A DNA stretch of 50,620 nucleotides, from NCBI GenBank assembly GCA_043821645.1, contig JBDRCO010000096.1, forward strand, positions 1-50,620. The letters are read 5' to 3'. Below, one piece after another: positions 1 to 49,539 of the stretch. The notes beneath the pieces are model-generated. The model did not search any database. It was not told the origin of the DNA and saw only the letters and a list, made by a program, of their open reading frames with translations. A program made the position numbers and the translations under genes. The stretch's first letter is position 1, and every line of letters starts with the position of its first letter. The DNA is from Pseudomonadota bacterium. GTDB lineage: Bacteria > Myxococcota > JACRCW01 > JAFGSX01.

Positions 1-515
1 GGTTCGAGCAGACGCTGCAATGCGAGCACCCGCTCGCTGCGGCGCCCATCCAGTTCGCCAAGGTGGATGGCGCCTGGTCCCGTGCGCTCGACGTCACCGG
101 GACCGTGCATGGTGCCTCCCCAGCCCACGATCGCGCTGACCACGCGTTCAGCACCCACGATGCTTGCCACGGCGTCCTCGACGATACCGTTCTGGCAGGT
201 GACCAGGTACCCCTCGCTGGCCAGCAGGGGCACGGTGACCCGAGCCGCCTCGACCACGCGTGTGGCTTTCATGATCAGCAAGGCCAGGTCAAAGGGAGGC
301 TCCTGTGCCAGGGCTTCGACCGTAGCCACGGCCCGAGCGGGTACCGAGTAGGCGCCGTCACGGGTCTTCACGCGAAGACCGCGCTCGGCGATGGCCCGGG
401 CGATGTCGGCATTGCCCGTGACGAGGGTGAGATCCTGCCCGGCCCGCAACATCTGGCCGGCCACCACACCCCCTATTCCTCCAACCCCCTCGACCAAGAT
501 CCTTGGACCTGCCAT
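1..515 (-). CDS. panE: 2-dehydropantoate 2-reductase (ketopantoate reductase), runs off the window edge
   Basis: Not in the ORF track; translated by hand from ATG 515 (GGAG upstream): MAGPRILVEGVGGIGGVVAG...FDLALLIMKA...LVTCQNGI...GTMHGPG...IHLGELDG. Shows the Rossmann GxGxxG, the KA motif and the QNG motif of PanE/ApbA. Confidence 0.88.
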   Translation of the reverse strand, partial: MAGPRILVEGVGGIGGVVAGQMLRAGQDLTLVTGNADIARAIAERGLRVKTRDGAYSVPARAVATVEALAQEPPFDLALLIMKATRVVEAARVTVPLLASEGYLVTCQNGIVEDAVASIVGAERVVSAIVGWGGTMHGPGDVERTGPGAIHLGELDGRRSERVLALQRLLE

Positions 516-630
516 GCATACTCCGCCGACACCCTGAGTGGGTCATGCATCCCGTGGCAAGCGCATGATACGCCCCCACCCCTGTGCTAGCATGGGCGGG
601 CCCCATACGTCATGGCAGATCGAGGAGTAC

Positions 631-3600
631 ATGATGCAGGAACCCTCTGCAGGTCTTGGCAGGATCCTTGCGAGTTTCGTCATCACAGCCAGTGTTGCAG
701 GCTGCCAGGATTTTTTGCCGTCCAATCCATATGACCCGAGCGCGCCCACCCACATGCAGGCGCGAGGCGAGATCCGGGGCGTGATCTTCCTCGACGACTC
801 GAGTGCGACCGAGGACGCCATCCGCAGCGAGCTCGACGCCATCTCGGTGCACCTGCGCTCGGGGAGTGGCGAGGAGCTGGTGAGCAGGACCTGTGCCTCG
901 GACACGAGTTCCGATGCCAGCCTGACCTGCACCCCCGCGGACCGGCGAGCCACCTTTAGCTTTCGCGAACTGTTGGCCGGGGACTACCGCATTGCCATCG
1001 ACGGGGTGAGCCTGCGCTACCTGCCGGTCAACGTGCCGCGCGTGACTCTGTCTCCGGGAGAGACCTCAGACCTCGACGTGCTGCGCTACGTGGTCATTCC
1101 TATTGGCGACAGTCCCCGGGACTGGACCGGCCGGGTGGAAGGTGACGTCAACCTGGCGGCGGGCCAGGGAGGACCGCGCAGGGTCACCTTGATGCGACAG
1201 GGAAGTAGTGGCCACGAGGCGCTGGCCACGGCCCTCACCGACAGCAGCGGTGCGTTCACCTTCGAAAAAGTGCCACCGGGCGAATACGCGGTGAGTGCAG
1301 AACTCGAGAACCACACCCCGGACTACAGGGTGGGCTTCTCCATCCAGGGCTCAGAGGTTCCGGTCGACCAGAACACCCAGCGCTTCACCGATAGCAGCGC
1401 CATGCTCCTGTACCCGGTCAGTGCGGTCCTCAAGCCAGACCTTCAACGCGTGTTCGGCCAGTACTACACCAGCACCACGACCGTGCCCCTCGAGGTGCTG
1501 GTCTTTGGCGGCATGAACGAGATGCGGCTGGGCACCGAGCCAGGTTTTGCCAGCGGCACCCAGACCTGGGTGCCACACTCCGGCGCGGCCGACCTCGATC
1601 TTCCTGACGTCGAGGGAGAGATCACGATCTACGGTCAGTTTCGCAACACCACCCACAGCGACTTCGTGTTCGAGTCCTCCGTGTACCAGACCACCCTGGT
1701 GCGCGACGTCACAGCGCCGGTGGTCGAGGACGTCCGCGTGCGCGGCCACGTGGCGGCTGCCGATGGCCGCATCTGGCTGTCCGCGGAGGGCGAGACCATA
1801 GGCCTCGACATCGACGGCTCGGACGCCGTCAGTGCCGTGTACGAGGTGACTCTCTACCACGACGACCTCAATGGCGCCGGCGACCCGCTGGTGCTGGGCT
1901 TCTCGCTGACCGAGACCCCTCCCGGGCTGGTGCGTCTCGACGAGGAGATGACGCTCAGCGCCGGTGAGGGTCAGAAGATCGTGTACGCCTATCTCAAGGA
2001 TCGCGCGGGCAACCTGAGCAGTGCGGGCCATGCCACGCTGTGGGTCGACGTCACGGCTCCGACCGTGGACCTGCTGGTCCTGAACACGGGTGCCACGGTC
2101 ACCGGAAACCGCACCGTGACCCTGGCCCTGGGAGCATCGGATCAGAACCGCGTCACCGGCATGAGGTTCTGGGAGGAAGGTCAGTCCGAGCCCTCGAGCT
2201 TCGGGCCCTATCAGGAAGTGACGACGCTGCAGTTGCAGCCTCTCAACTATGGCAACACCCAGCGCCAGGTGAATGCCCGCGTGGTGGACCAGGCGGGCAA
2301 TGCGTCCACCATCAGCTCGGCCACCATCACTTTCGATGATCGCGGCAGCGTTGCGGGCCTGCTCTACGTCGAGGACGCAGCCGACGGCAGCCCGGGTGAC
2401 GTCTCGGGAGTCACGGCCCTGGTCAACGGTCAGAGCTATCCCCTCGTGGCAACCGCCGGCAACAACCCAGGAGATCCCTGGCAGTTCACCGTCACGCAGA
2501 TCCCCGCCGGCGCCAACCTGTACCTGGTGCTTCAGAAGGCGGGCTATGGCAACGCCAGTCCGACCTCCCTGTTCAGCGTCAGCCCCGGGGTGGTCACCGA
2601 CGCCGGGGTCCTCAGGCTGCAACTTGCGCGCGGCAGCATCGAGGGATGGGTCGAGGTCGAGGCGGTCGCGGACAGCAGCAACGCCATCGCCCGCATCGAC
2701 AGTACCGGGCAGTTTGCCCTGTCCGACAGCACGGGCTACTTCCGCATCGAGCAGGTGCCAGCGCGTCTGGGCTACAGCGTGACCCTGAGCTACGACAGCG
2801 TGCACGCCTCCCAGGTGGTCACGGGCATCGACGTGCCAGCGTCGGGCACCACGCGCATCTCCCAACCCGGTCAGCCCATTCCATTGGCGCTGCTCGCGGG
2901 CAGCTTCGCCATTGCCCAGGGCATCTACAGCAAGGATCCGCGCATCACCTTGAGCATGAGCTATGACGGCGCCATCGAGTACCGCGCCAGCATCAACCGC
3001 GGCGACCTGCAGAACGATGTCGTCGCCTGGAGCAGCTTCTCCAACGCCGTCGGTAGCACCACCGGCTACGACTTTGACCTGCCGTCCCAAGACGGGCTGT
3101 ATAGCGTCTTCGTACAGTTCAGGGACGACACTCCCAACACGGGTTTCGTGTCCGAGATCTTCAGCGATGTGGTGACGCTGGATCAGCTTGTGCCGTCGAA
3201 CGTGGGCCTGCAGATCAACAGTGGAGCCGTCTACAGCAGCACGCTGTCCGTCACCCTGACGCCGTCGGGAACGGATGCCAATCCCATCCCGAACGTGCAA
3301 CTCAGTTACAGGGACACGACCTTGGCCAGCGAACTGGTCGACGGCGACTGGAACGCCCCCCGATCCTGGAACGGTCAACCTTTTGGTGTATCTCTGCCCG
3401 GTCTGCTCGCCTTCCGGACGGCGCGCGTCTGGGTACGCCTCATCGACGCCGCGGGCAACGTGAGTCTGCCTGTGCTCTCCAGCATCGTGATCGATCCCGC
3501 GGCTCCCACAGGTGGCAACATCGTGATCGAGGGTGGAGCCCTGGTGACCAGATCCTTCCTGGTGACCCTGACGCTGAGCGCCAGCGACGACACGCCCATC

Positions 3601-6600
3601 GAGATGCTCATCGCCGACGAGGCGGTGCCCGCGACAGGCACCTGGAGGACCTTCGCCCCGAGCACCTCGTGGGTCTTGCCCCCGGCCACCCAGGGCACCA
3701 AGCGCGTGTGCGTGGCCTACCGCGATGCCGCTGGGAACCGGACACAGGACTACTGTGACGACATCAGCTTCGACAGCGTGGCGCCGCCGACGCCTGCGAT
3801 GACGACGACGGCGGGCAGCTACACCAATCAAGCGCAGATCACCCTCGACTTCGGCAACGTCACCGCCGACGTCAGCAGCATCGAGGTGGCCAGCAACGCA
3901 GCCTTCAGCGGGGCCCAGGTGCACCCGGCGCAGGCCCAAATCTCCTTCAACCTGGGCAGTGGCGACGGCCCCCGCCTGGTGTACTCGCGCTACGTGGACG
4001 CGGCGGGAAACTTCTCTGCCGCGGCGGTGGTGAGCGTGACCCTTGATACCGAACCACCCCTGGCTCCGTCGCTGAACGTGGCCCAGGGCGTGCTGACCAA
4101 CTCACGGGTCATTGACCTGCAGCTCAGCGCGCTGGGCGCCAGCGAGGTGCTGGTCGCCCGCAGCGCCACCTGCAACACGGGAGGCACCGCACCTGACGCC
4201 GGAGGATTCGACACCGGGGGTACGGTCGACGAGGGCTGGCGCGCATTTGCCACCACCGTGCCCTGGCTTTTGCTCGACCAGGATGGAGCCCAGGATGTGT
4301 CGGTGCGCTTCCGCGACCAGGCGGGCAATCCCACCGGCTGCCTCAGCGCGCGCATCACCCTGGATCGTCAGCCGCCGGCACCAGGGGCGACGCCCGTGGT
4401 GCTGAGCAACCTGCGGCTCGAGCTCGACGCGGCCGGCACGGCCGTGCAGCGGGTGCTGGTGCGCGTGGACCTGTCCTCCACAGGCGCCACCGAGATGAAG
4501 ATCTCCAACCTGCCCGGCGCCACGGACGCCACCTGGCGCAGTTACCAGACGCCCCTGACCGAGTGGGAACTCGACCCCACGGGCGGCCAGAAGACCGTGT
4601 ACGTATTCCTGCGTGACGGTGCAGGCAACAGCACCGCCCAGCTCCAGGCCAGCATCTATGTCGACACCACCGGCGACATCAACGGCACCCTCGCCGTCGA
4701 AGGGGCGAGCGACTTCACAGACGTGGCCTTCTACCTCGATGGCAACCCCGTGACTCCGGTGTACACCGGCAGTGCTTTCGCCCTCGAGAACGTGCTCGCC
4801 GCGGAATACGGCACCCTGGAAATCGTCAAGCTCGGCTATGACGCGGTCACGGTGCGAAACGTGCGCGTGCCGCCAGGTGGCGTTGCCAGCCTTGGCGCGC
4901 TCTCCCTGAGGCAATCCCGAGGTGCGGTCGAGGGCTACGTCAGCCTCGCCGGAGCCTCCTCCCACGAGAATGTTCTGATCGAACTGCTCAACACGGGATA
5001 CACCACGCGCTCGAACTCGGCGGGTTACTTCTACCTGGGTGACGTCCTCGTCGGCACCTTCGATCTCAAGGCCTCGCGCGATGGTTTCTCGCCGCAGCTC
5101 CGCACCAGCATCCTCGTCTCGTCAGGCTTGACCACCTCCATCTCCAGCAGCCTGGATCCCATCCCCCTGCCCGTGGCGTCGGGCGACTACACCATCAACG
5201 GTGGAGCCTCCTACACCAGCACCACGCGCGTGCACCTCAACCTCTCGTATACCGACGCCACCGCGTTCAGGGTCAGCGAGACCTCGGACTTCCAGGGCAT
5301 CCCGGGCTTTCCGACCACCTATACCGGGGCGGGGGACTACGACTTTGACCTCGGCCCTGCTCCCACGCCGCCGCAGGGCGAGCACACCGTGTACGTGCAG
5401 TTCAGCACGCCCGGTGGCCCCAGCGCGGTGCTGCAGTCGAGCATCGTTCTCGACACTATCCCGCCGACCCAGGGCACCGTGCTACTGGCCGGCGGCGCGG
5501 TGGCGACCAAGGTGCTCAACGTGAGCGCGGCGCTCAGCTCCAGCGACGCCAACGGCATCGCGAGGATCGCGACGAGCCTCAATGGCAGCACCTTTGCCCC
5601 ACCGGTCACCTACCAGACGCCCTACACCTATGCCTTCACCGGCGCCGAGGGTACCAAGTGCCTGTACGTCCAGCACATCGACAGCGCCGGCAACCGTTCG
5701 GCCCTGCCCGCGGCCAGCGACTGCATCACCTACGACATCACGCCGCCCTCAGGCACGGTCGCCATTGTCGACGCCACAGGTACTGCCTATACCGGTGGCG
5801 TGACGCGCAGCCGCGCGGTGTACCTGCAGCTCAGTTCTCCCGACGCCACCGAGATGAAGATCTCGAACAAGGCCACCCTGGTCGACGCCGTGTGGCAACC
5901 CTTCGACAGCACCTTGCAGCCCTGGAACCTGAACGCAGGCGACGGCCCGCGCACCGTTTATATCGCCCTCCGAGACCAGGCCGGCAACGAGGCCAAAGGA
6001 ACAGCCGGGCTCGACGCCACCATCAGCGTGGACAGCACGCCGCCCAGCGCGCCGGTGTTCGCCATCACCCAGGGAACCTTCACCAGTACCCGGACCATCA
6101 CCCTGAGCTTCAGCAACTGGACGAGCGGCGAGACCGTGCTGTTTGAGAGCAACCAGGCCCTGGGTAGCATCCAGAGCAAGGCCGCCGCCGGGTCCCTGAG
6201 CTTCGACCTCCCCGACGTCGAGGGACTGCACCTGCTGGGCCTGCGGTACCGCGACGCCGCGGGTAACGAGAGCACTGCGGCCTCGGCCAGCATCACCCTG
6301 GACCGGGTGGCACCGACCCTGCTGCGCTTCGTGGTCGACGGGAATGGCTATACCAGCGCGGGCACGGTCTCACTGGTCATCGAGGCCGACGGTGCCACCC
6401 AGATGCGCTTCAGCAATGGCGCGGACTTCTCGGGCTCGACCTGGGAGCCCTACCGAACCCGGCGCCTGCTGTGGCCCCTCGATACCGGGACCCAGGGCCT
6501 GAAAACCGTGCGCGTGCAGCTCCGCGATGCCGCCCTCAACCCAACGGCGGGCACGGACACCGCCAGCGTCGAGTACGACACCACGGCCCCGACGGCGACC

Positions 6601-9600
6601 CTCGTGCTGGCGGGCGGTGTCAACCCCGTGGCCACACAAACCATCTCCGTGGCCCTGCAGGGCGCACCCGTCGACACGGCCTGGATGGCGGTGTCGAGCG
6701 CCGCCGCCCTCGACTGCGCCACCGCCTCGTACAGCGCCTTCACCGCCGAGATCAGCCATGTGCTGTCCACGCCCAACGACGACAATGTGGTCTACGTGTG
6801 TCTCAAGGACCTGGCTGGCAACACGCGTCTGCACAGCGGGAACATCACCCACGACGCCACCGCGCCCCTGGTCACCAGTGTGGCCACTCCCACCACCAGC
6901 ACCGACGCTGACGGTACGGTCAACGTGCAGGTCACTGTCAGCAACGCCGAGGACGATACCGTCACCGTCACCCTGACCAGCCAGCACGCGACCACGGGAA
7001 GCTTCACCATCGTGCCGATTACCAGCCGCACCGGAAGCGCCAGCATCGCGCTGCTGCCAGCGGGGGGTGGCTACAGCGACGCCGACGTGCTGCTGGAGAT
7101 CACGGCGACCGATCCCGCGGGCAACAGCTACAGCACCACGAGGGTGGTGCGCGTCGACCGCTCGGCCCCGACCGGCACGCTGCTCATCGACGGTGGCGCC
7201 ACTTACTCCACCAGCACCACCGGCCTGGTGACCCTGACCCTGAGCGCCACCGACAGCTTCTCGGGCGTCAGCCGCATGCGCTTCAGCAACGACGGCAGCA
7301 CCTGGGACAGCTGGCAGAGCTTTGCCTCCACCTACGGTCCCTGGCCTCTGGCCACGCCCTCCAGCCAGAATGATGTTCTCAAGACGGTGTACATGCAGCT
7401 CGAGGACGCGGTGGGCAACGTGTCCACGAGCACCATCAGCGACACCATCCGGCTGGACAATGTCGCCCCGGCCACGGGTGCGTTCCAGATCAACGGTGGA
7501 ACCGGCACCACCAACCAGCGGGCAGTGACCCTGAGCTTCAGCGCCACCGCGGCCACCGAGATGAAGTTGAGCCATGGCGACTCCTGCGTCGGCGGGGGGT
7601 GGGAGACCTACGCTGTCAGCGGCACCGCACCCTGGGTGCTCGAGGGCGAGGGCAGCGCGGTCTATGCGTCCGCGATCTTCCGGGATGCTGCGGGCAACCT
7701 GTCCGGCTGCGTCAACGACAGCATCACCGTGGACCTGACCAGCCCCGAGCTACCCTCGATCGCAATCGACCTCGGCGCGACCTACAACAGGAGCAGTACA
7801 CACCAGCTCAGCGTGCTGCTCAGCGCCACAGATGCCACGTTCTACCGCCTGGCCGAGACGGCCGCGGGCATCGACGCGGCGACCTGGGTCACGCCTGTGC
7901 CAGCCGGTGCCTTCACCTACACCCTGTCGTCGGGGAACCAGGGCGACGGCGAGAAGATCCTGTTCGCCCAGTTCAAGGACGACGCGGACAACACCAGCGT
8001 GGTGGTCAGCGACAGCATCATCCACGACGCCACAGCACCGGTCGTGGGCTACCTGCTAGTCGACAACGGTGCCGAGTTCACCCGCAGCACGGCTGGTCAG
8101 GTCAGCCTGTACTTCGGTGGCAGCGACGAGACCAGCGGTCTGGCCTCGGTGGAGATCAGCAACAACGGCACGAGCTGGTCAGCCTCACAGACCTACACGG
8201 GTTACATCGCGAGCTGGACCCTGGCTGCGCCCACGGCCAGCGTCGACGGTATCACGCGAACCGTATACGTCCGGTTCAAGGACAGGGCCGGCAACACCTC
8301 AACCTCGAAGAGTGACGACATCACCCTGGACAACGTCGCCCCCTCGGGCACGGTGCAGGTCAACAACAACGCCACCTACTCGGCGAGCCAGGCCGTGCAG
8401 GTGGTGGTGAATCCGGGCTCGGACGTGGAGCTGGTCTCACTGGCCAACGACAGCTCTCCGACCTGCAGCACGGCGTCCTACACCAGCGTTCAGGAAGTCT
8501 ATTCCTGGACCCTGTCCGCCGCGGATGGCCCCAAGACCGTCTTCGCCTGCTTCCGGGATCGCGCGGGTAACGTCAGCTCGCCACCGGCCAGCGATGGCAT
8601 CATCCTGGACACCCTGCGTCCGAGCTTCGTGGTCGAGGCCCAGTATCCCAATGGCACACCCAGCACCATCACCAGCGATGCCGACGGCACCATCCGCTTG
8701 GCCGTGACCCTGGACGCCTCGGATCAGGACACGGTCGACCTGGTCGCCACCTCGCCTGATACAGGAGCCATCATCGCAACTGCCATCAGCAGCGGCCAGA
8801 CCCTGGGCAATCTGGATCTGGTCATCGCACCCGCTGGCGCCGTGGACGATGGACCCTACCTCGTGGACGTGACCGCCACCGACGCAGCCAGCAACAGCTT
8901 CTCGTTGCAGCGCACCATCACCGTCGACCGCACGCCGCCCGTGCTCAGCAACGTGAGCTGCCCGGCCTGCTCCGAATGCGAGGGTTCCTGGTTTGTCAGA
9001 GGCGCCGCTGTCCTGTTGAGTCCCGTGGGATTCGACGACACCTCCGGCCTCGACCGTTTCGAGATCCGCAACGGCACCGGCACAGTCGTTGACACCGCGG
9101 GCGTCGGCGAGCAGCTCTCGTTCAATCTGGCGACCACGGAAGGCGTGCAGCAGGACTTCACTGTTCACGCCTTCGATCGCGCCGGGCTGCAGAGCGACCC
9201 ATGGCCCCTGCGCCTGGTCTACGACGCGTCGAACCCGACCCTTGGTGTCGCGTTTGCCAATGGCATCGCTTACTCCGGTGCCACGTACATCTCGCAAGCC
9301 ACGGTCGAAGTCTCACTGAACATGACGGATGGCAACTTCGCCGGGTTCCCGCAGTGCTATGGCCAGCGCTACGCCTGGGGCAGCAACCCCTCGGGTCCCT
9401 GGGGCCCATACCTGCCAGACTTCCCGGCGACGATCTCCCCAAGCTCCGATGGCAGCAGAGAGCTCCGGGTCGAGGTGAAAGACCCGGCCGGTCGCACGAT
9501 CGTCGGTCAGAGAACGATCATCCTGGACGCCAGCCCTCCGACGGGCAGCGTGACCCTCTCGGCGGTCGTTGGCGGAAGCACCAGCTACATCCAGGACAGA

Positions 9601-12600
9601 TTCGTCAACGTCGCGCTCACCCACAGCAACGACGTCAACGGCTACGCCCTGGTCGCGTCTTTCGAAGATTGCAGCGTGCTCCCTCTGGGCGCCTTCTTGC
9701 CCATCACGCCTCCCGCGACCAGCACCACTCGCAACAACGTCGACCTGGGCCTGCTCCCGGGCGTTCTGCCTCCCTTTGATAACCCCGAAGGCAATTCGGT
9801 CACGCTCAAGGCCTGTTTCAAGGACAGGGCCGAGAACCGCAGCGGTGCCTCGGACAGCATCGTGCTCGATCGCGTCCCACCGCAGGGTGCTCTGGTCATC
9901 GACGGCGACGCCCCCTGGGTCACCGACGCTGGTGGCGACGTCACCTTGACCTTCTCGGTGGATGCCGGGGACGTGGACGAGGTGTTCATCTGCAACGGCA
10001 CCTCGCCGTCAAACTGCATCGGCGCCGTGCCCGATCCCTGTGCGACCTCGCACACCCTCGAGAGCTACACGTCGACTAAGTTGTGGGCCCTGGACACCTC
10101 GGGTGGTGACGGCACCAAGTTCGTGCTCGCCTGCCTGGTCGACAACGCGGGACACCGCACGCCGATCTTCGACCAGGTGGACCTGGACCGCACCGCGCCC
10201 GCTCCCGCTGCGGTCGCGATCCGGGGTCGCATCGGATTTCGCTGCTGCACTCAGGGAGAATTCTGCCTGGACATCCCGGGATGCACCGAGAGTTCGACCA
10301 AGACCCGCATGCTGCGCGCAGCACTTGAATTCGGTTTCAGCTCGGCGAGCCCGATCGCCGACGTCCAGTATGCGGCAGGCAACGGCGACCTGTCCTGCGA
10401 TGCCCTGGCCGGCTGGACCCCGTTTGGTCCCACCGGCAACTGCCAGGACGGCGTGCTCGGAGGCTCGGGCTATGCCTGCCAGCGCATCGAACAGTGGCTC
10501 TTACCCGAGGCCGAGGGCGACGTCACGGTCACCGTGTGCTTCCGCGATGCCGCGGGATTGATGACCAAGCTCAGCGATACCATCGAGGAGGACAGGACAC
10601 CGCCCAGCGAAGCCAGTATCTCGTCGGTGAGTGCTGGACATCGCAGCGTGAGCCTGACCTGGGAAGGGAGCGCGAGCAGCGACCTCGCGGGCTACCGGGT
10701 CAAGTGGTTCCAGCCCTCGTACCCCGCGCCATGGTGGGCCCAGGTCGACCCGGAGGTGACAGACCCAAACCATCTTGGTACCTCCATCGACAGCCGGACC
10801 GTCGTCATGCCGTCCGGAGACCCACCGATCTCGAACTGCGAGCCCGTGGACCTGCGCGTGATGGCCTTCGACGACGCGGGCAACTGGTCGCTGTCCGCGC
10901 CGCAGTCGGCCACGCCGACCTTCCCGGCACCGGCAGATGTGTTCGTCGTGGGCCGCGCGCGCGAGCTACAAGTGAGCTGGAGTCCCGTCGTCGACGCTCT
11001 CAACTACCGCGTCTACGTGGCCTCCACGGCCGATGTCCAGGGCACGGCCCAGGGCTACGTGCAGGTGCCAAGCGGTGTCACCAGCGCCACCATCCGCGAT
11101 GGCGACATGTTCACCTCTCCCTCGACGGCAGTGCTTCTCCTCGACCGAACGACCTACCACGTGGGCATCGCCGCGGAGGATGGCGTGAGCTTCGTGCCCA
11201 GCTGCTTCAGCGCCGTGGGCGCGACAGACAGCGACGCGACCCGGAGTCTGGTGCCCTCGCAGACCTGGAACGGCACGATCCATCAGGGTGCGTTTGGCAC
11301 CAGGCTGGCCACCACGGACATGGATCACGACGGCTACGACGATCTGCTGATCAGCTCGCCAGCCACGCCCGACGTGTACGTCGCGGGCAACAACCTGGTC
11401 CAGGAGCCCGACGCGGGCATCGTCGAGATGTACTCCGGCCGGACACGCCAGCGCGTCTTCATGGCCAACGGAGCCCGCCCCCACGAGCGCGCAGGGACAG
11501 GCCTGGCCGTGCTCGACGATCTCGACCGAGACGGGTGGAGGGAGTTCGCCATCGGCCGACCCGGCTGGCAATGGGATGATGGAACCCAGACCAACAACAA
11601 GCGCGGCCGCCTGGATCTCTACTCCGGTCGCACAGGGATCTTGATCAAGTCCCTTTACTCACCCGAGCTCAGCGCCCTGGACAACGACGAGTTCGGCTTT
11701 GCCATCGCCAGCGCCGGCGACTTCGTCAACGCCTCCGGTGCTGTGGCAACGGATGGCATCGACGAGTTCGCCGTGTCCTCACCGGGCTACAACAACCAGG
11801 GCCGGGTCTACTTCTTCAATGGTGCGACCCAGCAAGAACTCAGCACCTACCGGCGCACAGGCGTCGCCGGGGAGCGCTACGGAGAAATTCTCATCGAGGC
11901 CGTGACCAGGGCCGGTGGTGTTGGCCAGATCATGGCTGCCGTGGCGCCGGCAGTATCTCCAACTTTTTACGGTGTGGCCCGGGTGTTCAGGCCAGTGCTG
12001 TCGGGCAACCTGCTCGTGGTCACCGGCAGCGCCGCGCGACCTATCGACGGTGGCGTGGCCCTGGCGAAGGCTTTTGGGAGCATCCAGGTCAACCTCATCG
12101 CCGTCGGCATGCCCGGCGCGATGGCAGGACCCCGGGTGGCGTCGTATCTCTACAACGGGAGTTCCACCACCGCGCTCAGCGACATCGTCTCTCCCTATCC
12201 CTCCGCTGTCGCCTTCGGCAGCGCACTCCGCTTTGCCTCGGTGCTGCGGCTGGGCGAAGCGCCGGACCTGGTGGTTGCGGGATCGGACAAGGGTGCTGCT
12301 GGCGTGCAGGGGCGCGTCACCCTGTACCAGATCGAGAGCGGCCCCAGCATCCGTCGGGCCCTGGACTGGACGGCCAGCAAACCGAGCTCAGGCTTCGGCA
12401 CCAGTCTGGCGGTCGGCCGCTTCGACAACACGGGTGTGGACCAGATCGCCGTGGGTGCACCCCGCTACAACGTGGGCAGCTTCGAGGCAGGGAGTGTCCA
12501 GGTCCTGGCTCATGATCTGTTCCAGGTGACGCCAGCACGCAGTGCCAGCGTACGCTTTGGCGAACTCCTGTTCATGCCACAGGGCGGCACGCCCGCCTAC

Positions 12601-14151
12601 GCTGTCGACTTTGCCAGTGGCGGCAACAACAGCAGCGCGCCAGCCCTGGATGGCAGCGGTGCCTACCAGGCCGGGCCCGTCGACGCGACCGAAGACCAGC
12701 TGCTATTCAGCGATGCCAAGGCACGCACCCTGACCCTGCCCGTGCCCGTGGTCAGGCCAGCGGGGGCGGTGGGCACACCTCAACTGAACGCCGTGTGCGC
12801 GGTCGATGACGAGTGCGGCATAGGAGCGGCCGTGGCCATCATCCACGACGTCGATGGCGACGGGCACCGGGACATTGCAATCGGTGCACCCCTGTACCCG
12901 GACACGGGCCTCACCCCTCAGTCCGGCGCCGTGCTCATCGTCAGCGGAACCGGCGGCTTCGCCTCCAACACCCTGCTGAAGATCATCGAGAACCCGGTGG
13001 CAGAGACAGGTGCGATGTTCGGCACGTCCATCGCGTACATGGACGACGTGAATGCTGATGGCCGCGGCGAGCTGGCAATCAGCACACCCCTGGCCAACTT
13101 CGGTGGTTTCAACAACTCGGGACGGGTGGACATCTACAGCGGCTCAGCACTGCTGGCACCGAGCCCGACCATCATGCTGTCCTTTGGCGGAAGTGACGAC
13201 GACCAGCAGCTCGGACACACCCTGGCTTACCTGGGTAACTACAACGATGTGGAGGGCCTGGACCTGGCCGTGGGCAATCCTGACTTCAATGGCTCGGGTG
13301 GCCTCGTGTGCGTTGCCAACGTGACCACGGCCGGTATCACGCAGTGGTACAGCAGTGGCTTGCCTTCGGGGTTCTGCTCGCCGCAGACCCCGGATCCCCT
13401 GGATAGAGCCTGGGACCGCATCGAGGGCAGCCCCCAGGAACGCCTGGGTCAGGCCATCGCAGGTGGAGATGTGACCGGCGACGGCGTGCCAGACCTGATC
13501 ATCGGCGCGCCCTGGGCCCGCAACGGCGCGCGCGCCCACGCTGGCCGCGTCATCGCCTTCCTGGGCTCGCGCTACCGGAACATCATGGGCCAGGTCGGGC
13601 TGGAGCTCTATGGATCTTCCACCGAGGCCTGGCTGGGCTGGGCTGTCACAGTGGGCAGTGACTACGACGACGATGGCAGCCGCGAACTCCTGGTGGGCGC
13701 GCCGGCGGACAGCTCGCGCGGTTTCACGCACGGCGGCAGCATGCACGTGGTCTCGACCCGCACCGGGGGCGCGATCGAGAGCGCGCACGGCACTGAGAAC
13801 TACGCCTACTTCGGATCGGCGGTGGCCGTCGCGGACTTCAACCACGACGGATATGGCGACTGGATCGTGGGTGCACCAGGAGATCCCCAGAACCTGTATG
13901 GTGACGACGGAGACATCTACCTACTCGATGGCGCCACGGGTGCAGGGCAGAACGTGCACTCGGGTCCCAACAGCATGGGCGAGATGTGGGGATACAGCCT
14001 GGCTGCCGGCGCTGACATCGATGGAGATGGCTTCGAGGACTTCGTGGCGGGAACGCCCGGGCGCCGCTCACCATCCTTCGTCAGTCACCCCGGGGGAGCC
14101 AAGGTCTTCATCACCTGCAGCCCCTACAACAGCGGTGGTGCCTGCCCCTGA
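631..14151 (+). CDS. Giant (~4506 aa) surface lipoprotein/adhesin: carboxypeptidase-regulatory-like domains, Ig-like repeats, FN3, two FG-GAP beta-propellers
   Basis: ORF 538-14151. The likely start is ATG 631 or 634 after GAGGAG, with lipobox ASVAG-C. About 25 D-x-A-G-N-type repeats end in D-x-x-x-P. Fourteen FG-GAP-like blades lie at the C-terminus (e.g. FGSAVAVADFNHDGYGDWIVGAP). Confidence 0.9.
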   Translation: MMQEPSAGLGRILASFVITASVAGCQDFLPSNPYDPSAPTHMQARGEIRGVIFLDDSSATEDAIRSELDAISVHLRSGSGEELVSRTCASDTSSDASLTCTPADRRATFSFRELLAGDYRIAIDGVSLRYLPVNVPRVTLSPGETSDLDVLRYVVIPIGDSPRDWTGRVEGDVNLAAGQGGPRRVTLMRQGSSGHEALATALTDSSGAFTFEKVPPGEYAVSAELENHTPDYRVGFSIQGSEVPVDQNTQRFTDSSAMLLYPVSAVLKPDLQRVFGQYYTSTTTVPLEVLVFGGMNEMRLGTEPGFASGTQTWVPHSGAADLDLPDVEGEITIYGQFRNTTHSDFVFESSVYQTTLVRDVTAPVVEDVRVRGHVAAADGRIWLSAEGETIGLDIDGSDAVSAVYEVTLYHDDLNGAGDPLVLGFSLTETPPGLVRLDEEMTLSAGEGQKIVYAYLKDRAGNLSSAGHATLWVDVTAPTVDLLVLNTGATVTGNRTVTLALGASDQNRVTGMRFWEEGQSEPSSFGPYQEVTTLQLQPLNYGNTQRQVNARVVDQAGNASTISSATITFDDRGSVAGLLYVEDAADGSPGDVSGVTALVNGQSYPLVATAGNNPGDPWQFTVTQIPAGANLYLVLQKAGYGNASPTSLFSVSPGVVTDAGVLRLQLARGSIEGWVEVEAVADSSNAIARIDSTGQFALSDSTGYFRIEQVPARLGYSVTLSYDSVHASQVVTGIDVPASGTTRISQPGQPIPLALLAGSFAIAQGIYSKDPRITLSMSYDGAIEYRASINRGDLQNDVVAWSSFSNAVGSTTGYDFDLPSQDGLYSVFVQFRDDTPNTGFVSEIFSDVVTLDQLVPSNVGLQINSGAVYSSTLSVTLTPSGTDANPIPNVQLSYRDTTLASELVDGDWNAPRSWNGQPFGVSLPGLLAFRTARVWVRLIDAAGNVSLPVLSSIVIDPAAPTGGNIVIEGGALVTRSFLVTLTLSASDDTPIEMLIADEAVPATGTWRTFAPSTSWVLPPATQGTKRVCVAYRDAAGNRTQDYCDDISFDSVAPPTPAMTTTAGSYTNQAQITLDFGNVTADVSSIEVASNAAFSGAQVHPAQAQISFNLGSGDGPRLVYSRYVDAAGNFSAAAVVSVTLDTEPPLAPSLNVAQGVLTNSRVIDLQLSALGASEVLVARSATCNTGGTAPDAGGFDTGGTVDEGWRAFATTVPWLLLDQDGAQDVSVRFRDQAGNPTGCLSARITLDRQPPAPGATPVVLSNLRLELDAAGTAVQRVLVRVDLSSTGATEMKISNLPGATDATWRSYQTPLTEWELDPTGGQKTVYVFLRDGAGNSTAQLQASIYVDTTGDINGTLAVEGASDFTDVAFYLDGNPVTPVYTGSAFALENVLAAEYGTLEIVKLGYDAVTVRNVRVPPGGVASLGALSLRQSRGAVEGYVSLAGASSHENVLIELLNTGYTTRSNSAGYFYLGDVLVGTFDLKASRDGFSPQLRTSILVSSGLTTSISSSLDPIPLPVASGDYTINGGASYTSTTRVHLNLSYTDATAFRVSETSDFQGIPGFPTTYTGAGDYDFDLGPAPTPPQGEHTVYVQFSTPGGPSAVLQSSIVLDTIPPTQGTVLLAGGAVATKVLNVSAALSSSDANGIARIATSLNGSTFAPPVTYQTPYTYAFTGAEGTKCLYVQHIDSAGNRSALPAASDCITYDITPPSGTVAIVDATGTAYTGGVTRSRAVYLQLSSPDATEMKISNKATLVDAVWQPFDSTLQPWNLNAGDGPRTVYIALRDQAGNEAKGTAGLDATISVDSTPPSAPVFAITQGTFTSTRTITLSFSNWTSGETVLFESNQALGSIQSKAAAGSLSFDLPDVEGLHLLGLRYRDAAGNESTAASASITLDRVAPTLLRFVVDGNGYTSAGTVSLVIEADGATQMRFSNGADFSGSTWEPYRTRRLLWPLDTGTQGLKTVRVQLRDAALNPTAGTDTASVEYDTTAPTATLVLAGGVNPVATQTISVALQGAPVDTAWMAVSSAAALDCATASYSAFTAEISHVLSTPNDDNVVYVCLKDLAGNTRLHSGNITHDATAPLVTSVATPTTSTDADGTVNVQVTVSNAEDDTVTVTLTSQHATTGSFTIVPITSRTGSASIALLPAGGGYSDADVLLEITATDPAGNSYSTTRVVRVDRSAPTGTLLIDGGATYSTSTTGLVTLTLSATDSFSGVSRMRFSNDGSTWDSWQSFASTYGPWPLATPSSQNDVLKTVYMQLEDAVGNVSTSTISDTIRLDNVAPATGAFQINGGTGTTNQRAVTLSFSATAATEMKLSHGDSCVGGGWETYAVSGTAPWVLEGEGSAVYASAIFRDAAGNLSGCVNDSITVDLTSPELPSIAIDLGATYNRSSTHQLSVLLSATDATFYRLAETAAGIDAATWVTPVPAGAFTYTLSSGNQGDGEKILFAQFKDDADNTSVVVSDSIIHDATAPVVGYLLVDNGAEFTRSTAGQVSLYFGGSDETSGLASVEISNNGTSWSASQTYTGYIASWTLAAPTASVDGITRTVYVRFKDRAGNTSTSKSDDITLDNVAPSGTVQVNNNATYSASQAVQVVVNPGSDVELVSLANDSSPTCSTASYTSVQEVYSWTLSAADGPKTVFACFRDRAGNVSSPPASDGIILDTLRPSFVVEAQYPNGTPSTITSDADGTIRLAVTLDASDQDTVDLVATSPDTGAIIATAISSGQTLGNLDLVIAPAGAVDDGPYLVDVTATDAASNSFSLQRTITVDRTPPVLSNVSCPACSECEGSWFVRGAAVLLSPVGFDDTSGLDRFEIRNGTGTVVDTAGVGEQLSFNLATTEGVQQDFTVHAFDRAGLQSDPWPLRLVYDASNPTLGVAFANGIAYSGATYISQATVEVSLNMTDGNFAGFPQCYGQRYAWGSNPSGPWGPYLPDFPATISPSSDGSRELRVEVKDPAGRTIVGQRTIILDASPPTGSVTLSAVVGGSTSYIQDRFVNVALTHSNDVNGYALVASFEDCSVLPLGAFLPITPPATSTTRNNVDLGLLPGVLPPFDNPEGNSVTLKACFKDRAENRSGASDSIVLDRVPPQGALVIDGDAPWVTDAGGDVTLTFSVDAGDVDEVFICNGTSPSNCIGAVPDPCATSHTLESYTSTKLWALDTSGGDGTKFVLACLVDNAGHRTPIFDQVDLDRTAPAPAAVAIRGRIGFRCCTQGEFCLDIPGCTESSTKTRMLRAALEFGFSSASPIADVQYAAGNGDLSCDALAGWTPFGPTGNCQDGVLGGSGYACQRIEQWLLPEAEGDVTVTVCFRDAAGLMTKLSDTIEEDRTPPSEASISSVSAGHRSVSLTWEGSASSDLAGYRVKWFQPSYPAPWWAQVDPEVTDPNHLGTSIDSRTVVMPSGDPPISNCEPVDLRVMAFDDAGNWSLSAPQSATPTFPAPADVFVVGRARELQVSWSPVVDALNYRVYVASTADVQGTAQGYVQVPSGVTSATIRDGDMFTSPSTAVLLLDRTTYHVGIAAEDGVSFVPSCFSAVGATDSDATRSLVPSQTWNGTIHQGAFGTRLATTDMDHDGYDDLLISSPATPDVYVAGNNLVQEPDAGIVEMYSGRTRQRVFMANGARPHERAGTGLAVLDDLDRDGWREFAIGRPGWQWDDGTQTNNKRGRLDLYSGRTGILIKSLYSPELSALDNDEFGFAIASAGDFVNASGAVATDGIDEFAVSSPGYNNQGRVYFFNGATQQELSTYRRTGVAGERYGEILIEAVTRAGGVGQIMAAVAPAVSPTFYGVARVFRPVLSGNLLVVTGSAARPIDGGVALAKAFGSIQVNLIAVGMPGAMAGPRVASYLYNGSSTTALSDIVSPYPSAVAFGSALRFASVLRLGEAPDLVVAGSDKGAAGVQGRVTLYQIESGPSIRRALDWTASKPSSGFGTSLAVGRFDNTGVDQIAVGAPRYNVGSFEAGSVQVLAHDLFQVTPARSASVRFGELLFMPQGGTPAYAVDFASGGNNSSAPALDGSGAYQAGPVDATEDQLLFSDAKARTLTLPVPVVRPAGAVGTPQLNAVCAVDDECGIGAAVAIIHDVDGDGHRDIAIGAPLYPDTGLTPQSGAVLIVSGTGGFASNTLLKIIENPVAETGAMFGTSIAYMDDVNADGRGELAISTPLANFGGFNNSGRVDIYSGSALLAPSPTIMLSFGGSDDDQQLGHTLAYLGNYNDVEGLDLAVGNPDFNGSGGLVCVANVTTAGITQWYSSGLPSGFCSPQTPDPLDRAWDRIEGSPQERLGQAIAGGDVTGDGVPDLIIGAPWARNGARAHAGRVIAFLGSRYRNIMGQVGLELYGSSTEAWLGWAVTVGSDYDDDGSRELLVGAPADSSRGFTHGGSMHVVSTRTGGAIESAHGTENYAYFGSAVAVADFNHDGYGDWIVGAPGDPQNLYGDDGDIYLLDGATGAGQNVHSGPNSMGEMWGYSLAAGADIDGDGFEDFVAGTPGRRSPSFVSHPGGAKVFITCSPYNSGGACP

Positions 14152-14325
14152 TCACCCGGATCTGACCCGAGCAACTCCTGCCACATTTCACACGGGACGT
14201 GTTCCGGTGCACACCCGCAGCTCGACTTCCATGCCCACCATGACCTCCACCTGACCGGCCAGCGTGCGGTCCTGGGCGGGCGCGCTACCCTACGGGTGCA
14301 ATGGTGGGAGAAGGAGTTGCACCCG

Positions 14326-14703
14326 ATGGTGTCGAAGACAGAGCACAAAGAGGAGTCAGGCTACCGCATCGAGTTCCAGTCCTCGCGCGAGTGGGTCACC
14401 GCTCGCACGGACAGGCTCGACGAGCAGCACTTCGTGGTGTCCAGCGCCTCGGAAGTGGCGGTGGGATCACCGCTCAACGTCCTGGTCTATATCCCGCGAG
14501 ATGACGACGTGGATCTGATCAAGACCCGCGCTCGAGTCGTTCGCTGCGATGACAAGCAAGGCGTGTTCGAGATCGAGGCGCGACTGGAGGTCTTTGCCCC
14601 GGGAGACGAGCGGCGCTGGCGGCTGTGGTGGCGCGCCCAGAATGCGCTACCACACCGTGCCCTACCCCGGCCGCCTCGCAATCGCAGTCCCAAGGTTGCC
14701 TGA
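14326..14703 (+). CDS. PilZ-like domain protein (degenerate)
   Basis: AAGGAG RBS precedes ATG 14326. The pattern V.VGS.L.V.VYIP....IKTRARVVR......IEARL fits the PilZ beta-barrel. RxxxR and D/NxSxxG are absent. Confidence 0.55.
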   Translation: MVSKTEHKEESGYRIEFQSSREWVTARTDRLDEQHFVVSSASEVAVGSPLNVLVYIPRDDDVDLIKTRARVVRCDDKQGVFEIEARLEVFAPGDERRWRLWWRAQNALPHRALPRPPRNRSPKVA

Positions 14704-14714
14704 AACGGCGAGCA

Positions 14715-15515
14715 CTACTCAGCGGTGACGGCCGCGTCCTCGACGATGAGCTCGTACTTGTAGCCCGCGCCGAAGTCCTTGTCGGCGACCAGCGTGCCCT
14801 TGACCAGCACGGTGTCACCAACCTTGGCCATGGCCGCAGTGGTCACGGTCAGGTCATTGCTGCCCTCGCTGCCGCTGCCATCGCGCAGGTGTATCCAGTT
14901 CTTGCCCATGATGTTGGCGTTGAACTTGACCACCTTGCCCCGCACGGCCAGGGGCTTGCCCACCAGCGCGGCCTTCTTGTTGTGGATCTCCTCGACGGTG
15001 ACGCCGCCTTCGGCCTTGGTCACGCTCCCGGCAGCCACCGCCGCCTCGGCGCCCTGGCCGCCCATCACCTGCGGATGCCCCTCGGGCATCGAGCCGGGTT
15101 CACCAGCAGCGGCCCCCATGGCCTGCTGTGGCATTGCCGCCGGCGCCCTCTGGTTGGGGTCGACGAAATAGACGAGCTCGAAGGTACGACCCAGGCTCTC
15201 GCTCTTGAAGTTCTGCATGGGCATGCCAGGCGGCAGGTCGATGGGATCGCCGACCTTGATGGCCATCTTGGGCACCGCGGCCCACACCTTTTCGCTGCCG
15301 CTGTCGACGAGCACATAGGTGTAGCCGGCGGCATCCATGGTCTCGGCAACCTTGCCGGCGATGCGCGCCTGGGCTCCGGCGAGTTGTTTCTCCACCGTGG
15401 TGGGTGGGGTAGCCGGGTCCGGTGTCGCAGCCGGTGCCTGGCCATCGGTCTTGGTGCAGGCCACCAGGGCCAGGGCTGTGGTCATCGCGATCATGCAGGA
15501 CAGGGTTCGGCGCAT
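14715..15515 (-). CDS. Lipoprotein with two OB-fold-like domains (NrfJ-like / 'DNA-binding protein' family)
   Basis: Lipobox LALVA-C. Motifs GKVAETMDAAGYTYV..KVWAA and VRGKVVKFNANIMGKNWIHLRDGSG...DKDFGAGYKY, with an MPEGHP linker. Confidence 0.65.
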   Translation of the reverse strand: MRRTLSCMIAMTTALALVACTKTDGQAPAATPDPATPPTTVEKQLAGAQARIAGKVAETMDAAGYTYVLVDSGSEKVWAAVPKMAIKVGDPIDLPPGMPMQNFKSESLGRTFELVYFVDPNQRAPAAMPQQAMGAAAGEPGSMPEGHPQVMGGQGAEAAVAAGSVTKAEGGVTVEEIHNKKAALVGKPLAVRGKVVKFNANIMGKNWIHLRDGSGSEGSNDLTVTTAAMAKVGDTVLVKGTLVADKDFGAGYKYELIVEDAAVTAE

Positions 15516-15658
15516 CGTCCGTTCTCCTTGTTCATCCGGTTTGGTCGTCGTCCTCGTCATTCATGGCACATCTAGCGCAGGCAGGGGACCGGGAGAAGTC
15601 AGGTCTGTCACAACTCGGTCGCGCCACTGTCCTGGTATACTGATCTCCGGAGGCGCAC

Positions 15659-49414: not shown

Positions 49415-49539
49415 GGACGCCTCCTCGCAGGTGACCAGCATTCATTATGAGATTCGGGTGCGTGATCCGCGTCGGTCGTTGATCCGACGTCGGAAGTTGC
49501 CGACATCGCGTGAGAACACCTGTCTGCCCCTTCCGACAG

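Follow-up and report, generated by a model that had tools for sequence, protein, structure and literature searches.

The window, that is, the whole stretch of 50,620 nucleotides that was analysed, carries on its forward strand a gene (631..14151) that forms a single intact frame of 4,506 amino acids. The open frame runs from 538 to 14151 (+) without an internal stop over 13.5 kb, and the probable start is the ATG at 631 or 634, with a ribosome binding site (GAGGAG, 622-627) upstream. Base composition is even along the gene and of the coding type, with a GC3 of 0.84. The host is an uncultured, myxobacterium-like organism from groundwater, represented by a metagenome-assembled genome (MAG) of 140 contigs, in which the gene lies on contig C96; the samples that contain the gene are from groundwater or biofilm. 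The Ppk1 sequence gave no useful placement of the organism, as its identities of 39-58% are scattered over many phyla. Scans for promoters and terminators on either side of the gene yielded 0 sites, and no RNA datasets were found among the sequencing runs listed for the gene. The features of the gene are collected in Table 1.

Table 1. Parts of the giant gene and the junctions between them, with the evidence for each
Feature	Coordinates	Strand	Basis
Signal peptide with lipobox V-A-G-C; Cys25 predicted lipidated first mature residue	631..705	+	Translation; RBS 622-627
Post-Cys signature: Cys, 4-8 residues, N-P-(F/Y/L)-D-P	703..738	+	13 of 15 family N-termini examined
CarboxypepD_reg/transthyretin-like beta-sandwich pair	808..1422	+	Pfam PF13620, 43.3 bits, 2 stretches
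Ig-like block 1, 3 modules	1423..2340	+	Own-repeat HMM
Stalk insert 1, CarboxypepD_reg-like, size fits two domains	2341..2886	+	Gap in module map; PF13620 22.5 bits, under cut-off
Ig-like block 2, 6 modules	2887..4668	+	Own-repeat HMM; colinear with C13 and C51 at 54-55% identity
Stalk insert 2, CarboxypepD_reg-like	4669..5169	+	PF13620 45.9 bits; fn3_3 25 bits
Ig-like block 3, 17 modules and 1 marginal	5170..10596	+	Own-repeat HMM; Big_13 and OmpL47-type matches
Two putative FN3 domains	10600..11220	+	Homology to G017 homologue; AF2 moderate, second domain only
Propeller 1 (P1), 7-blade FG-GAP, divergent	11242..12528	+	FG-GAP 53.1 bits; AF2; Foldseek E 2.5e-13; VIA-align Z 37.9
Inter-propeller spacer, ~90-100 aa (aa ~3967-4055)	12529..12795	+	pLDDT ~30; no Pfam match; similar length in G017
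Propeller 2 (P2), 7-blade FG-GAP	12796..14148	+	FG-GAP 142.3 bits; AF2 pLDDT 83.8; Foldseek E 3e-21; VIA-align Z 38.0
Junction Ig to FN3	bridged 10418-10762		Independent metagenome contig, 0 mismatches
Junction FN3 to P1	bridged 10625-11427		Independent metagenome contig, 0 mismatches
Junction P1 to spacer to P2	bridged 12345-12865		Independent metagenome contig, 0 mismatches
Junction P2 to downstream gene	bridged 12448-15600		Independent metagenome contig, 0 mismatches

Identical contigs (0 mismatches), which stem from runs of four studies, tile the gene and bridge every domain-class junction, and this makes a chimera unlikely. A chimera, a collapsed repeat or a pseudogene might still be suspected in a MAG of so many contigs, the more so since no single independent contig among the metagenome contigs spans the whole gene and several short-sided "joints" were listed in the contig comparison. 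The latter were disregarded, as their sides measure 21-29 letters (<30) and were flagged as unreliable by the tool itself. The length of frame free of stops, the even composition and the bridged junctions all speak against such an artefact. In addition, no tandem DNA repeats of note were found in the gene, the DNA of the stalk modules is just 60-80% alike and this only over short stretches, which argues against a collapse, and the order of the parts is common to colinear paralogues and to a homologue in a distant genome (see below). We therefore regard an artefact of this kind as extremely improbable.

The N-terminus, read from the translation, starts with an n-region containing Arg, followed by a hydrophobic core of 13 residues and by the sequence V-A-G-C, in which the Cys is Cys25. 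The latter sequence agrees with the lipobox pattern [LVI][ASTVI][GAS]C. Of the 15 family N-termini examined (paralogues and homologues from the phylum), 13 retain the lipobox Cys, and the genome encodes the machinery for lipoprotein maturation and transport (matches over cut-off: Lgt 3, LspA 2, Lnt 2, LolA 1). The lipid anchor that had been proposed in a sequence-only reading of this DNA is thereby strengthened, and the protein would be lipidated at Cys25 and located in the outer membrane.

A second signature directly follows the Cys. All three paralogues of the giant in its own genome (C13, C51 and C58) show the lipobox Cys and then an NP(F/Y)DP motif. A strict-lipobox scan of that genome recovered the post-Cys NPxDP only in the giant and in C13 and C58, while in C51 it is present behind a variant lipobox. 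The idea that the motif marks the lipoproteins of this genome in general was consequently rejected, and since within the genome it is limited to the family of the giant, a role in sorting does not necessarily follow. In the giant, position +2 after the Cys is Q, +3 is D and +7 is S; in the three paralogues +7 is Ala. In Myxococcus xanthus a Lys at +2 acts as the inner-membrane retention signal, the residues adjoining the Cys sort some lipoproteins to the matrix, and the +7 residue decides matrix export of FibA (PMC3222651, where the Asp+2 retention rule of E. coli is described as well). The giant lacks the Lys at +2. The NPxDP motif extends over this same position +7, by which M. xanthus directs matrix export.

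Most of the protein is a stalk. A hidden Markov model built from the repeats of the gene itself mapped 26 Ig-like modules (E<=1e-12) and one marginal module (E 0.14) of ~92 aa each, in line with the ~25-28 estimated in the sequence-only reading. The modules match Pfam Big_13 (75 bits, cut-off 27) and the OmpL47-type domain of NCBIfam (NF047446; 59.4 bits, cut-off 40), and the best PDB match of the module profile is 2yn3 (E 2.6e-5). In the third block the distal modules are degenerate, and a Cys-rich insert is found at aa ~3188-3243. The long beta-sandwich stalk of the sequence-only reading thus stands, but three pairs of CarboxypepD_reg-like domains (aa ~60-264, 571-752 and 1347-1513) had been overlooked. 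For the N-terminus of the giant the ESM Atlas returned only generic clusters of NOMO/CarboxypepD_reg-like sandwiches. Taken together, the rod comprises about 35 beta-sandwich domains: 6 CarboxypepD_reg-like, 26-27 Ig-like and 2 of the putative FN3 type. The FN3 assignment is indirect. The region itself has no Pfam match (E<=1) and no sequence match in the PDB, but it is 32% identical over 199 aa (E 1.6e-17) to the homologue in genome G017, which scores 40.5 bits on Pfam fn3 (PF00041; cut-off 25) in 2 stretches. In the AlphaFold2 (AF2) model the second FN3 domain reaches a pLDDT of 64-83, and the first stays below 50.

Two propellers make up the C-terminal end. The Pfam FG-GAP family (PF01839; cut-off 22.1) scores 156.4 bits on the whole protein, P1 and P2 each exceed the cut-off on their own (Table 1), and seven blades can be read in each of them, as had been proposed from the sequence. 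Predicted Ca loops with an exact D-x-[DN]-x-[DN]-G match number seven, five in P2 and two in P1, where these motifs are confined to blades 1-2 and blades 4-6 are degenerate; P1 is nevertheless in register with 33 FG-GAP proteins. The model of P2 (pTM 0.88) has integrin alphaIIb as its best structural match in VIA-align (rmsd 2.4 A, 372 residues aligned), and its residues 2-443 align with alphaIIb 14-452, the whole integrin propeller. Integrin alpha chains fill each of the top 10 structural rows for P2 (Z 33.7-38.0), generic propellers score Z 28-31, and by sequence P2 matches integrin alphaV (E 9e-11). P1 was modelled in a second AF2 run, in which most of the region has a pLDDT of 75-96, with weaker values (44-66) around model residues 440-500 in blades 4-6. 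Its best structural match is integrin alphaM (rmsd 3.0 A, 371 aligned), and residues 4-441 of alphaV are covered by it as well (Z 36.3); the alignment underlying this model consists mostly of generic FG-GAP propellers and could bias it towards that fold. As modelled, both propellers are closed seven-blade rings of the integrin-alpha type. The spacer between them is present and kept in G017, but the beta-rich fold once ascribed to it is not borne out by the model, since neither the spacer nor the first FN3 domain obtained a confident AF2 fold.

By sequence comparison the giant is a member of a paralogous family and not a singleton. The paralogues C13, C51 and C58 are 50%, 49% and 39% identical to it over 2,287, 2,126 and 1,356 aligned columns, which correspond to the first 1,300-2,300 residues, and contain 17, 17 and 13 Ig-like modules, respectively. 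Their heads lack FG-GAP repeats and differ from that of the giant wherever the end is assembled. No conserved neighbour gene is common to the four paralogue loci; two flanking ORFs recur, but at C13 and C58 only. Of 301 genomes sampled from the phylum, 20 contain the anchor module. The distant genome G017, a member of another family of the phylum, shows the parts in the same order, both propellers and the spacer included, and a single HSP (26% identity, E 2e-33) runs from P1 through the spacer into P2; the pieces of this counterpart lie at the ends of two contigs, and their joining is inferred. A spacer-centred query found G017 as the sole colinear genome among 400 others. That tally and the one of paralogue colinearity include an unpublished genome (G195), on which alone no claim is made.

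A search with the 977 C-terminal residues retrieved 27,044 clusters at E<=1e-3, which shows that multi-propeller FG-GAP giants are common in metagenomes. The best match is 32% identical, and none of the best 150 of these clusters is colinear over both propellers. A search among proteins of 2,478-7,886 aa gave only 3 matches, all with different architectures; a query of FN3, P1 and spacer gave 8 weak matches, and 40 relatives showed generic FG-GAP matches only. The giant lipoproteins with a shared anchor and stalk and differing heads constitute a previously undescribed family.

The absence of known secretion features, as noted in the sequence-only reading, holds on closer inspection. The GGxGxD motif occurs 0 times in the giant and HemolysinCabind (Pfam) has no match. 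No autotransporter, T9SS or RTX family of Pfam or NCBIfam was found in the whole protein, and no beta-barrel translocator either, at E<=0.01 for the whole protein and at E<=1 for nine segments that cover both ends and part of the stalk. None of the 28 neighbouring ORFs scanned encodes a T1SS ABC, MFP or TolC component or another secretion function. The MYXO-CTERM model (TIGR03901) has 29 matches over cut-off in the genome and 0 on contig C96; the giant itself closes with a short tail that contains Cys but no hydrophobic helix. A Slam profile (PF04575) had no match in the genome, but as the control likewise matched nowhere this result is uninformative.

We consider it rather likely that the giant is an outer-membrane-anchored fibre of ~110-140 nm, displayed at the surface and carrying a Ca-dependent binding head. 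The chain would be exported by Sec, acylated at Cys25 by Lgt, LspA and Lnt, and carried to the outer membrane, presumably by the Lol system, where it would form the rod described above. A beta-sandwich domain spans ~3.3-4 nm, so that ~35 domains would extend over ~110-140 nm. Such a rod would exceed the periplasm and would have to project from the cell surface; it is this length argument, and only this, that suggests surface exposure. The distal end would then present the two integrin-alpha-type propellers, joined by a conserved linker of ~100 aa, with P2 as the partner rich in Ca loops. The head may be a Ca-dependent binding module for a polysaccharide or a surface protein of the matrix, the substratum or other cells, as suggested by its likeness to integrin alpha heads and by the propeller of Vibrio Bap1/RbmC, which binds exopolysaccharide. 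The roles in adhesion or in the recognition of prey or kin that the sequence-only reading put forward are likewise conjectural. The family retains the lipobox, the NP(F/Y)DP motif, the N-terminal pair and the stalk while it swaps the head, which points to a modular scaffold for presenting a binding head at a distance from the cell.

The same anatomy could also serve other ends. Beta-propellers house many enzymes, and the head might be a stalk-held enzyme that cleaves or modifies glycans, the generic enzyme propellers reaching the Z of 28-31 against P2 given above; we think this improbable, since no enzyme family of Pfam or NCBIfam matches the giant and the integrin alpha propellers, which are non-catalytic, clearly lead the structural matches. 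Less probable still is a lipoprotein of the outer or inner membrane that faces the periplasm. Classical outer-membrane lipoproteins mostly do so, according to the CglD preprint, and the acidic residues at +2/+3 recall the Asp+2 rule of E. coli (PMC3222651), but the Lys+2 retention signal of M. xanthus is missing, and ~35 tandem sandwich domains with two propellers would probably be too large for that compartment.

An alternative of more weight, though in our view unlikely, is that of a released matrix component, which is lipidated and then exported or shed to the matrix or to vesicles, like FibA and other matrix lipoproteins of M. xanthus, and which would there cross-link exopolysaccharide and not serve as an adhesin anchored to the cell. 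The Ala at +7 of the three paralogues would fit such a fate, and so would the binding of matrix polysaccharide by the propellers of Bap1/RbmC (PMC10102183); the giant itself, however, has Ser and not Ala at this position. The surface-anchored fibre is kept here as the preferred reading.

Lipoprotein-anchored surface adhesins as such are an already established kind. The integrin alpha head (alphaIIb, alphaV, alphaM) is the closest relative of the propellers in sequence and fold, with seven blades and loops of the DxDxDG type. A true integrin alpha subunit was considered and rejected: the giant carries two propellers in tandem, which end the protein at its C-terminal tip, it has no thigh/calf leg, no transmembrane helix and no nearby beta-subunit gene, and its lipid anchor would be N-terminal. 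Within the Myxococcota a close parallel is formed by CglB (VWA, alphaI-like) and CglD (beta-integrin-like) of M. xanthus, which are surface-exposed, integrin-like lipoproteins. These are at most ~1,100 aa long, contain VWA, EGF-like or COMP modules and work with the Glt machinery of gliding; the terms "FG-GAP" and "propeller" do not occur in the CglD preprint (0 times). The giant, in contrast, lacks a VWA domain, and its neighbourhood contains no Glt genes.

The stalk and the head each have their own counterparts. The Lig proteins of Leptospira combine a lipobox with tandem Ig repeats. The stalk modules of the giant likewise resemble the OmpL47-type Ig-like surface proteins of that genus, as judged from NF047446, but the giant reaches only 39 bits on the OmpL47 equivalog model, far under its cut-off of 250, and the Leptospira proteins lack a propeller head and consist of a much smaller number of domains. 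A tandem rod of bacterial Ig domains with a binding tip away from the cell is also found in the giant T1SS adhesin SiiE of Salmonella, of which we take PDB entry 2yn3 (named "putative inner membrane protein" by its depositors) to be a BIg fragment. The giant differs from SiiE by the lack of RTX nonapeptides and of nearby T1SS genes, and by its attachment, which would proceed via the N-terminal lipobox and not via a T1SS retention module. As to the head, Bap1 and RbmC of Vibrio cholerae are modular adhesins whose Ca-type beta-propeller directly binds the exopolysaccharide of the cell itself, as reported in PMC10102183. Their propeller is eight-bladed, however, and the proteins are secreted, non-lipidated and equipped with beta-prism domains; they are absent from the 50 best structural matches of P2, but may still be related. 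Surface exposure has been reported for OmpL47 (PMC2698987).

One may extend the preferred reading of a surface-anchored fibre to a whole class of lipid-anchored surface fibres >100 nm in the Myxococcota, defined by the lipobox Cys, NP(F/Y)DP within 4-8 residues, a transthyretin-like pair, an Ig-type stalk and interchangeable heads. The double-propeller head would then be ancient and conserved, and would be the missing alpha-propeller element beside the alphaI-like CglB and the beta-like CglD, and the post-Cys motif would be the signal or handle for a dedicated surface route. This extension is speculative, and we put it forward only tentatively.

The transport of lipoproteins to the Gram-negative cell surface is understood only in part, and a lipoprotein of 4,500 residues would be an extreme cargo for any surface route. 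Giant proteins that combine Ig and FG-GAP domains are very common in metagenomes, which is a counterweight to the importance of this single case. Nevertheless, the double integrin-alpha-type head is a further argument that integrin-like parts serve myxobacteria in their contacts with the substratum, the matrix or other cells, and the family signature of a conserved Cys, an NP(F/Y)DP motif over position +7 and exchangeable heads provides a concrete, testable handle on myxobacterial lipoprotein sorting.

The giant gene is a single open frame at 538-14151 on the plus strand, with a GC3 of 0.84 and a composition that is even along its length. It lies on contig C96, the whole of which (50,620 bases) forms the window, in an assembly of 7.07 Mb, 140 contigs and 94.7% completeness. 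The ATG at 631 or 634, preceded by GAGGAG at 622-627, would be the best placed start; from there the predicted protein counts 4,506 aa and begins with the same short signal peptide as its homologues. Further along the contig, positions 15659-18151 (+) encode a protein of 830 aa that is rich in cysteine, begins with a lipobox-like stretch and contains a metal-binding motif of the MopE type (37 bits); the paralogue loci lack it in their flanks. At 48029-49441 (-), 34 kb from the giant gene, lies the gene for a 470-aa protein whose VWA domain has the integrin beta/alphaI-type fold.

At the DNA level the gene contains weak repeats, 30-70 nt long and 60-80% identical, besides a single trivial tandem repeat, which makes repeat collapse unlikely. 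The stretch is present in eight metagenome runs from five studies (groundwater, biofilm and aquatic), of which the best-matching one (share 0.88) could itself be the source. The sequence-only reading had named an assembly chimera as one outcome that would refute it; in alignments of contigs from four studies each class of junction is bridged without mismatch, while no single contig covers the whole gene and the contig joints listed have sides of 21-29 letters, a length that the tool flags as a warning. A second strain seems visible over window positions 1-2232, where a contig of run X1 shows 37 differences, the 3' pieces being identical. The pattern points either to variation among strains that is concentrated toward the anchor, or to another strain present in that sample.

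Features of the giant and its neighbourhood, junctions bridged by contigs of metagenome runs X1, X2 and X4, and own-genome paralogues
Feature	Position	Strand or orientation	Remark
PanE/ApbA gene	3-515	divergent from giant	upstream neighbour
281-aa predicted lipoprotein	14715-15560	-, convergent with giant	downstream neighbour, without Pfam family
CarboxypepD_reg-like segments	aa ~60-264; 571-752; 1347-1513		before first block and between blocks
Ig-like stalk blocks 1, 2, 3	aa 265-570; 753-1346; 1514-3322		own-repeat HMM
Junction last Ig module / FN3	10418-10762		X4 contig, 0 mismatches
Junction FN3 / propeller 1	10625-11427		X1 contig, 0 mismatches
Junction propeller 1 / spacer / propeller 2	12345-12865		X2 contig, 0 mismatches
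Junction propeller 2 / downstream gene	12448-15600		X1 contig, 0 mismatches
Paralogue C13	G000:C13:29970-36878	+	at least 2,303 aa, contig end cuts gene; 17 modules (module HMM)
Paralogue C51	G000:C51:160984-169371	-	2,796 aa; 17 modules (module HMM)
Paralogue C58	G000:C58:6916-15084	-	2,723 aa; 13 modules (module HMM)

The lipobox claimed earlier for the N-terminus is read in the translation as V-A-G-C with Cys25, behind a charged n-region and a 13-residue hydrophobic core. An HMM built from the giant's own repeats mapped 26 modules of ~92 aa at E<=1e-12 and one marginal module, in line with the ~25-28 Ig-like modules first proposed; the CarboxypepD_reg-like segments that interrupt the stalk had been overlooked. 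The modules share a D-x-A-G-N motif and a terminal Asp, and pass the cut-offs of Pfam Big_13 and the NCBIfam OmpL47-type domain. The nearest solved relative of their profile is 2yn3 (E 2.6e-5), which we take for a piece of SiiE, another giant adhesin. Cys-rich insertions in distal degenerate modules (aa ~2775-2790 and ~3188-3243; nt ~8950-9000 and ~10190-10360), in a protein with 41 Cys in total, may be disulfide-stabilised knobs.

Judged by its sequence, the giant does not stand by itself but belongs to a family. A query of four stalk modules retrieved two colinear paralogues in the own genome (54-55% identity) and two matches (50-52%) in the sole other genome of the taxonomic family; weaker module arrays were found in large ORFs of 56 of the 301 sampled genomes of the phylum, a count in which the own genome and G195, which is unpublished, are included. 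Paralogues C13, C51 and C58, named after their contigs, run colinear to the giant, signal peptide included, at 50%, 49% and 39% identity over 2,287, 2,126 and 1,356 columns, respectively. They keep its predicted anchor and stalk and, as far as their ends are assembled, carry different heads. In C58 an fn3 domain is followed by about 870 aa without family match, for which the ESM Atlas gave weak Kelch- or BNR-type propeller leads (0.80-0.85), the top match (0.92) being an fn3 cluster; C51 ends in about 400 aa without family match. The FG-GAP head is matched in the own genome by the window gene only.

The anchor carries a mark of its own. Fifteen N-termini were examined (giant, three paralogues and 11 loci of other genomes), and in 13 the lipobox Cys is followed, after 4-8 residues, by N-P-(F/Y/L)-D-P; one of the other two lacks the motif and one has it remote from any N-terminal Cys. 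A strict-lipobox scan of the own genome recovered the Cys plus NPxDP signature only in the giant, C13 and C58, and C51 has it behind a variant lipobox. Since the signature is confined there to the giant and its paralogues, we regard it as a family mark and reject the alternative of a general lipoprotein signal. Counterparts of the first 270 aa of the giant were found in 20 of 301 genomes, several times in some, in ORFs of up to 5,982 aa. In one family of the phylum (f18), genomes hold several copies of the anchor module, with C-E-V-V-T-P-x-N-P-F-D-P behind the lipobox, some in even larger ORFs; the 5,982-aa ORF (G073:C27) belongs to this set.

At the other end, the sequence-only reading had placed two FN3-like domains and two sets of seven FG-GAP blades. 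The FN3 region has no family match of its own, but a homologue (32% identity over 199 aa) passes Pfam fn3 in two stretches, so that the two domains are putative FN3 domains, called by way of the homologue. Both blade sets were read in the C-terminal 960 aa, and each alone exceeds the Pfam cut-off. When this region was modelled, both propellers were predicted to match integrin alpha propellers. The propeller 2 model (48 homologues in the alignment; pLDDT 83.8, pTM 0.88) does so with a Foldseek E of 3e-21 and a VIA-align Z of 38.0; integrin alpha chains fill all of its first ten rows (Z 33.7-38.0), against Z 28-31 for generic seven-blade propellers. Propeller 1 is divergent, with FG-GAP partners by sequence for its first three blades only, and aligns in register with 33 FG-GAP proteins. 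Its model is of mostly high confidence and reaches Z 37.9, though the underlying alignment consists mostly of generic FG-GAP propellers and could bias toward such a fold. The ~100-aa spacer, which the sequence-only reading had called beta-rich, shows no confident fold in the model (pLDDT about 30), so that this description is tentative.

A counterpart of this architecture lies in G017, a 72% complete genome from another family of the phylum. One ORF of at least 1,934 aa, running off its contig end, holds a lipobox, NPLDP, 12 modules, an FN3 pair and the first FG-GAP blades, and aligns with giant aa 11-1347 and 2436-3645. A second contig starts inside an 814-aa ORF (Pfam FG-GAP, 160 bits) that matches giant aa 3618-4416; a single HSP (26% identity, E 2e-33) reaches from propeller 1 over the spacer to propeller 2. 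We infer that both pieces belong to a single gene. Among 400 other genomes, G017 alone gave a colinear match to a query centred on the spacer, which indicates that the double head is old but rare in the sampled genomes.

We likened the giant to the giant-Ig-repeat adhesins, here from sequence and models, and to lipoprotein adhesins. It differs from RTX/T1SS adhesins, autotransporters, MYXO-CTERM proteins and true integrins in the defining feature of each. RTX repeats, an autotransporter barrel and neighbouring secretion genes had not been noticed earlier, and likewise we found no RTX nonapeptides in the giant, no autotransporter or T9SS domains by family search, and no secretion-system genes among 28 neighbouring ORFs scanned, so that the gene stands alone. 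The MYXO-CTERM tag, generally regarded as specific to myxobacteria, is absent from the giant; 29 occur elsewhere in the own genome and none in 14 control genomes. The giant's component parts are already known, and multi-propeller FG-GAP giants are common in metagenomes; a lipobox-anchored look was found, by a crude regex, in two of 139 Met-starting proteins among the best FG-GAP matches. As far as sequence comparison tells, the novelty lies in three things: the signature of the family, a size that is extreme among lipoproteins, and a double propeller that is conserved. A full-text literature search found no description of such a giant-lipoprotein family, although one may exist.

Genes for Lgt, LspA, Lnt and LolA are all present in the own genome. 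LspA (signal peptidase II) is encoded by a tandem pair (G000:C118:155166-156337, -); as Lgt is matched three times and Lnt twice in full, the lipoprotein machinery appears expanded. Cys25 would be acylated and the giant moved to the outer membrane and displayed outside, where about 35 tandem sandwich domains, at a rise of 3.3-4 nm each, would form a rod of roughly 110-140 nm. In M. xanthus, Lys at +2 causes inner-membrane retention of lipoproteins, and FibA is directed to the matrix by Ala at +7 (PMC3222651); in the giant these positions hold Gln (+2) and Ser (+7), and the three paralogues have Ala at +7, immediately preceding NP(F/Y)DP. Work on M. xanthus CglB and CglD shows that the surface of myxobacteria is accessible to lipoproteins of integrin-like type. 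Finally, by the precedents of the integrin alpha heads and of the Bap1/RbmC propeller, for which PMC10102183 describes direct exopolysaccharide binding, the probable ligand of the head is a glycan or a surface protein, bound with dependence on Ca.
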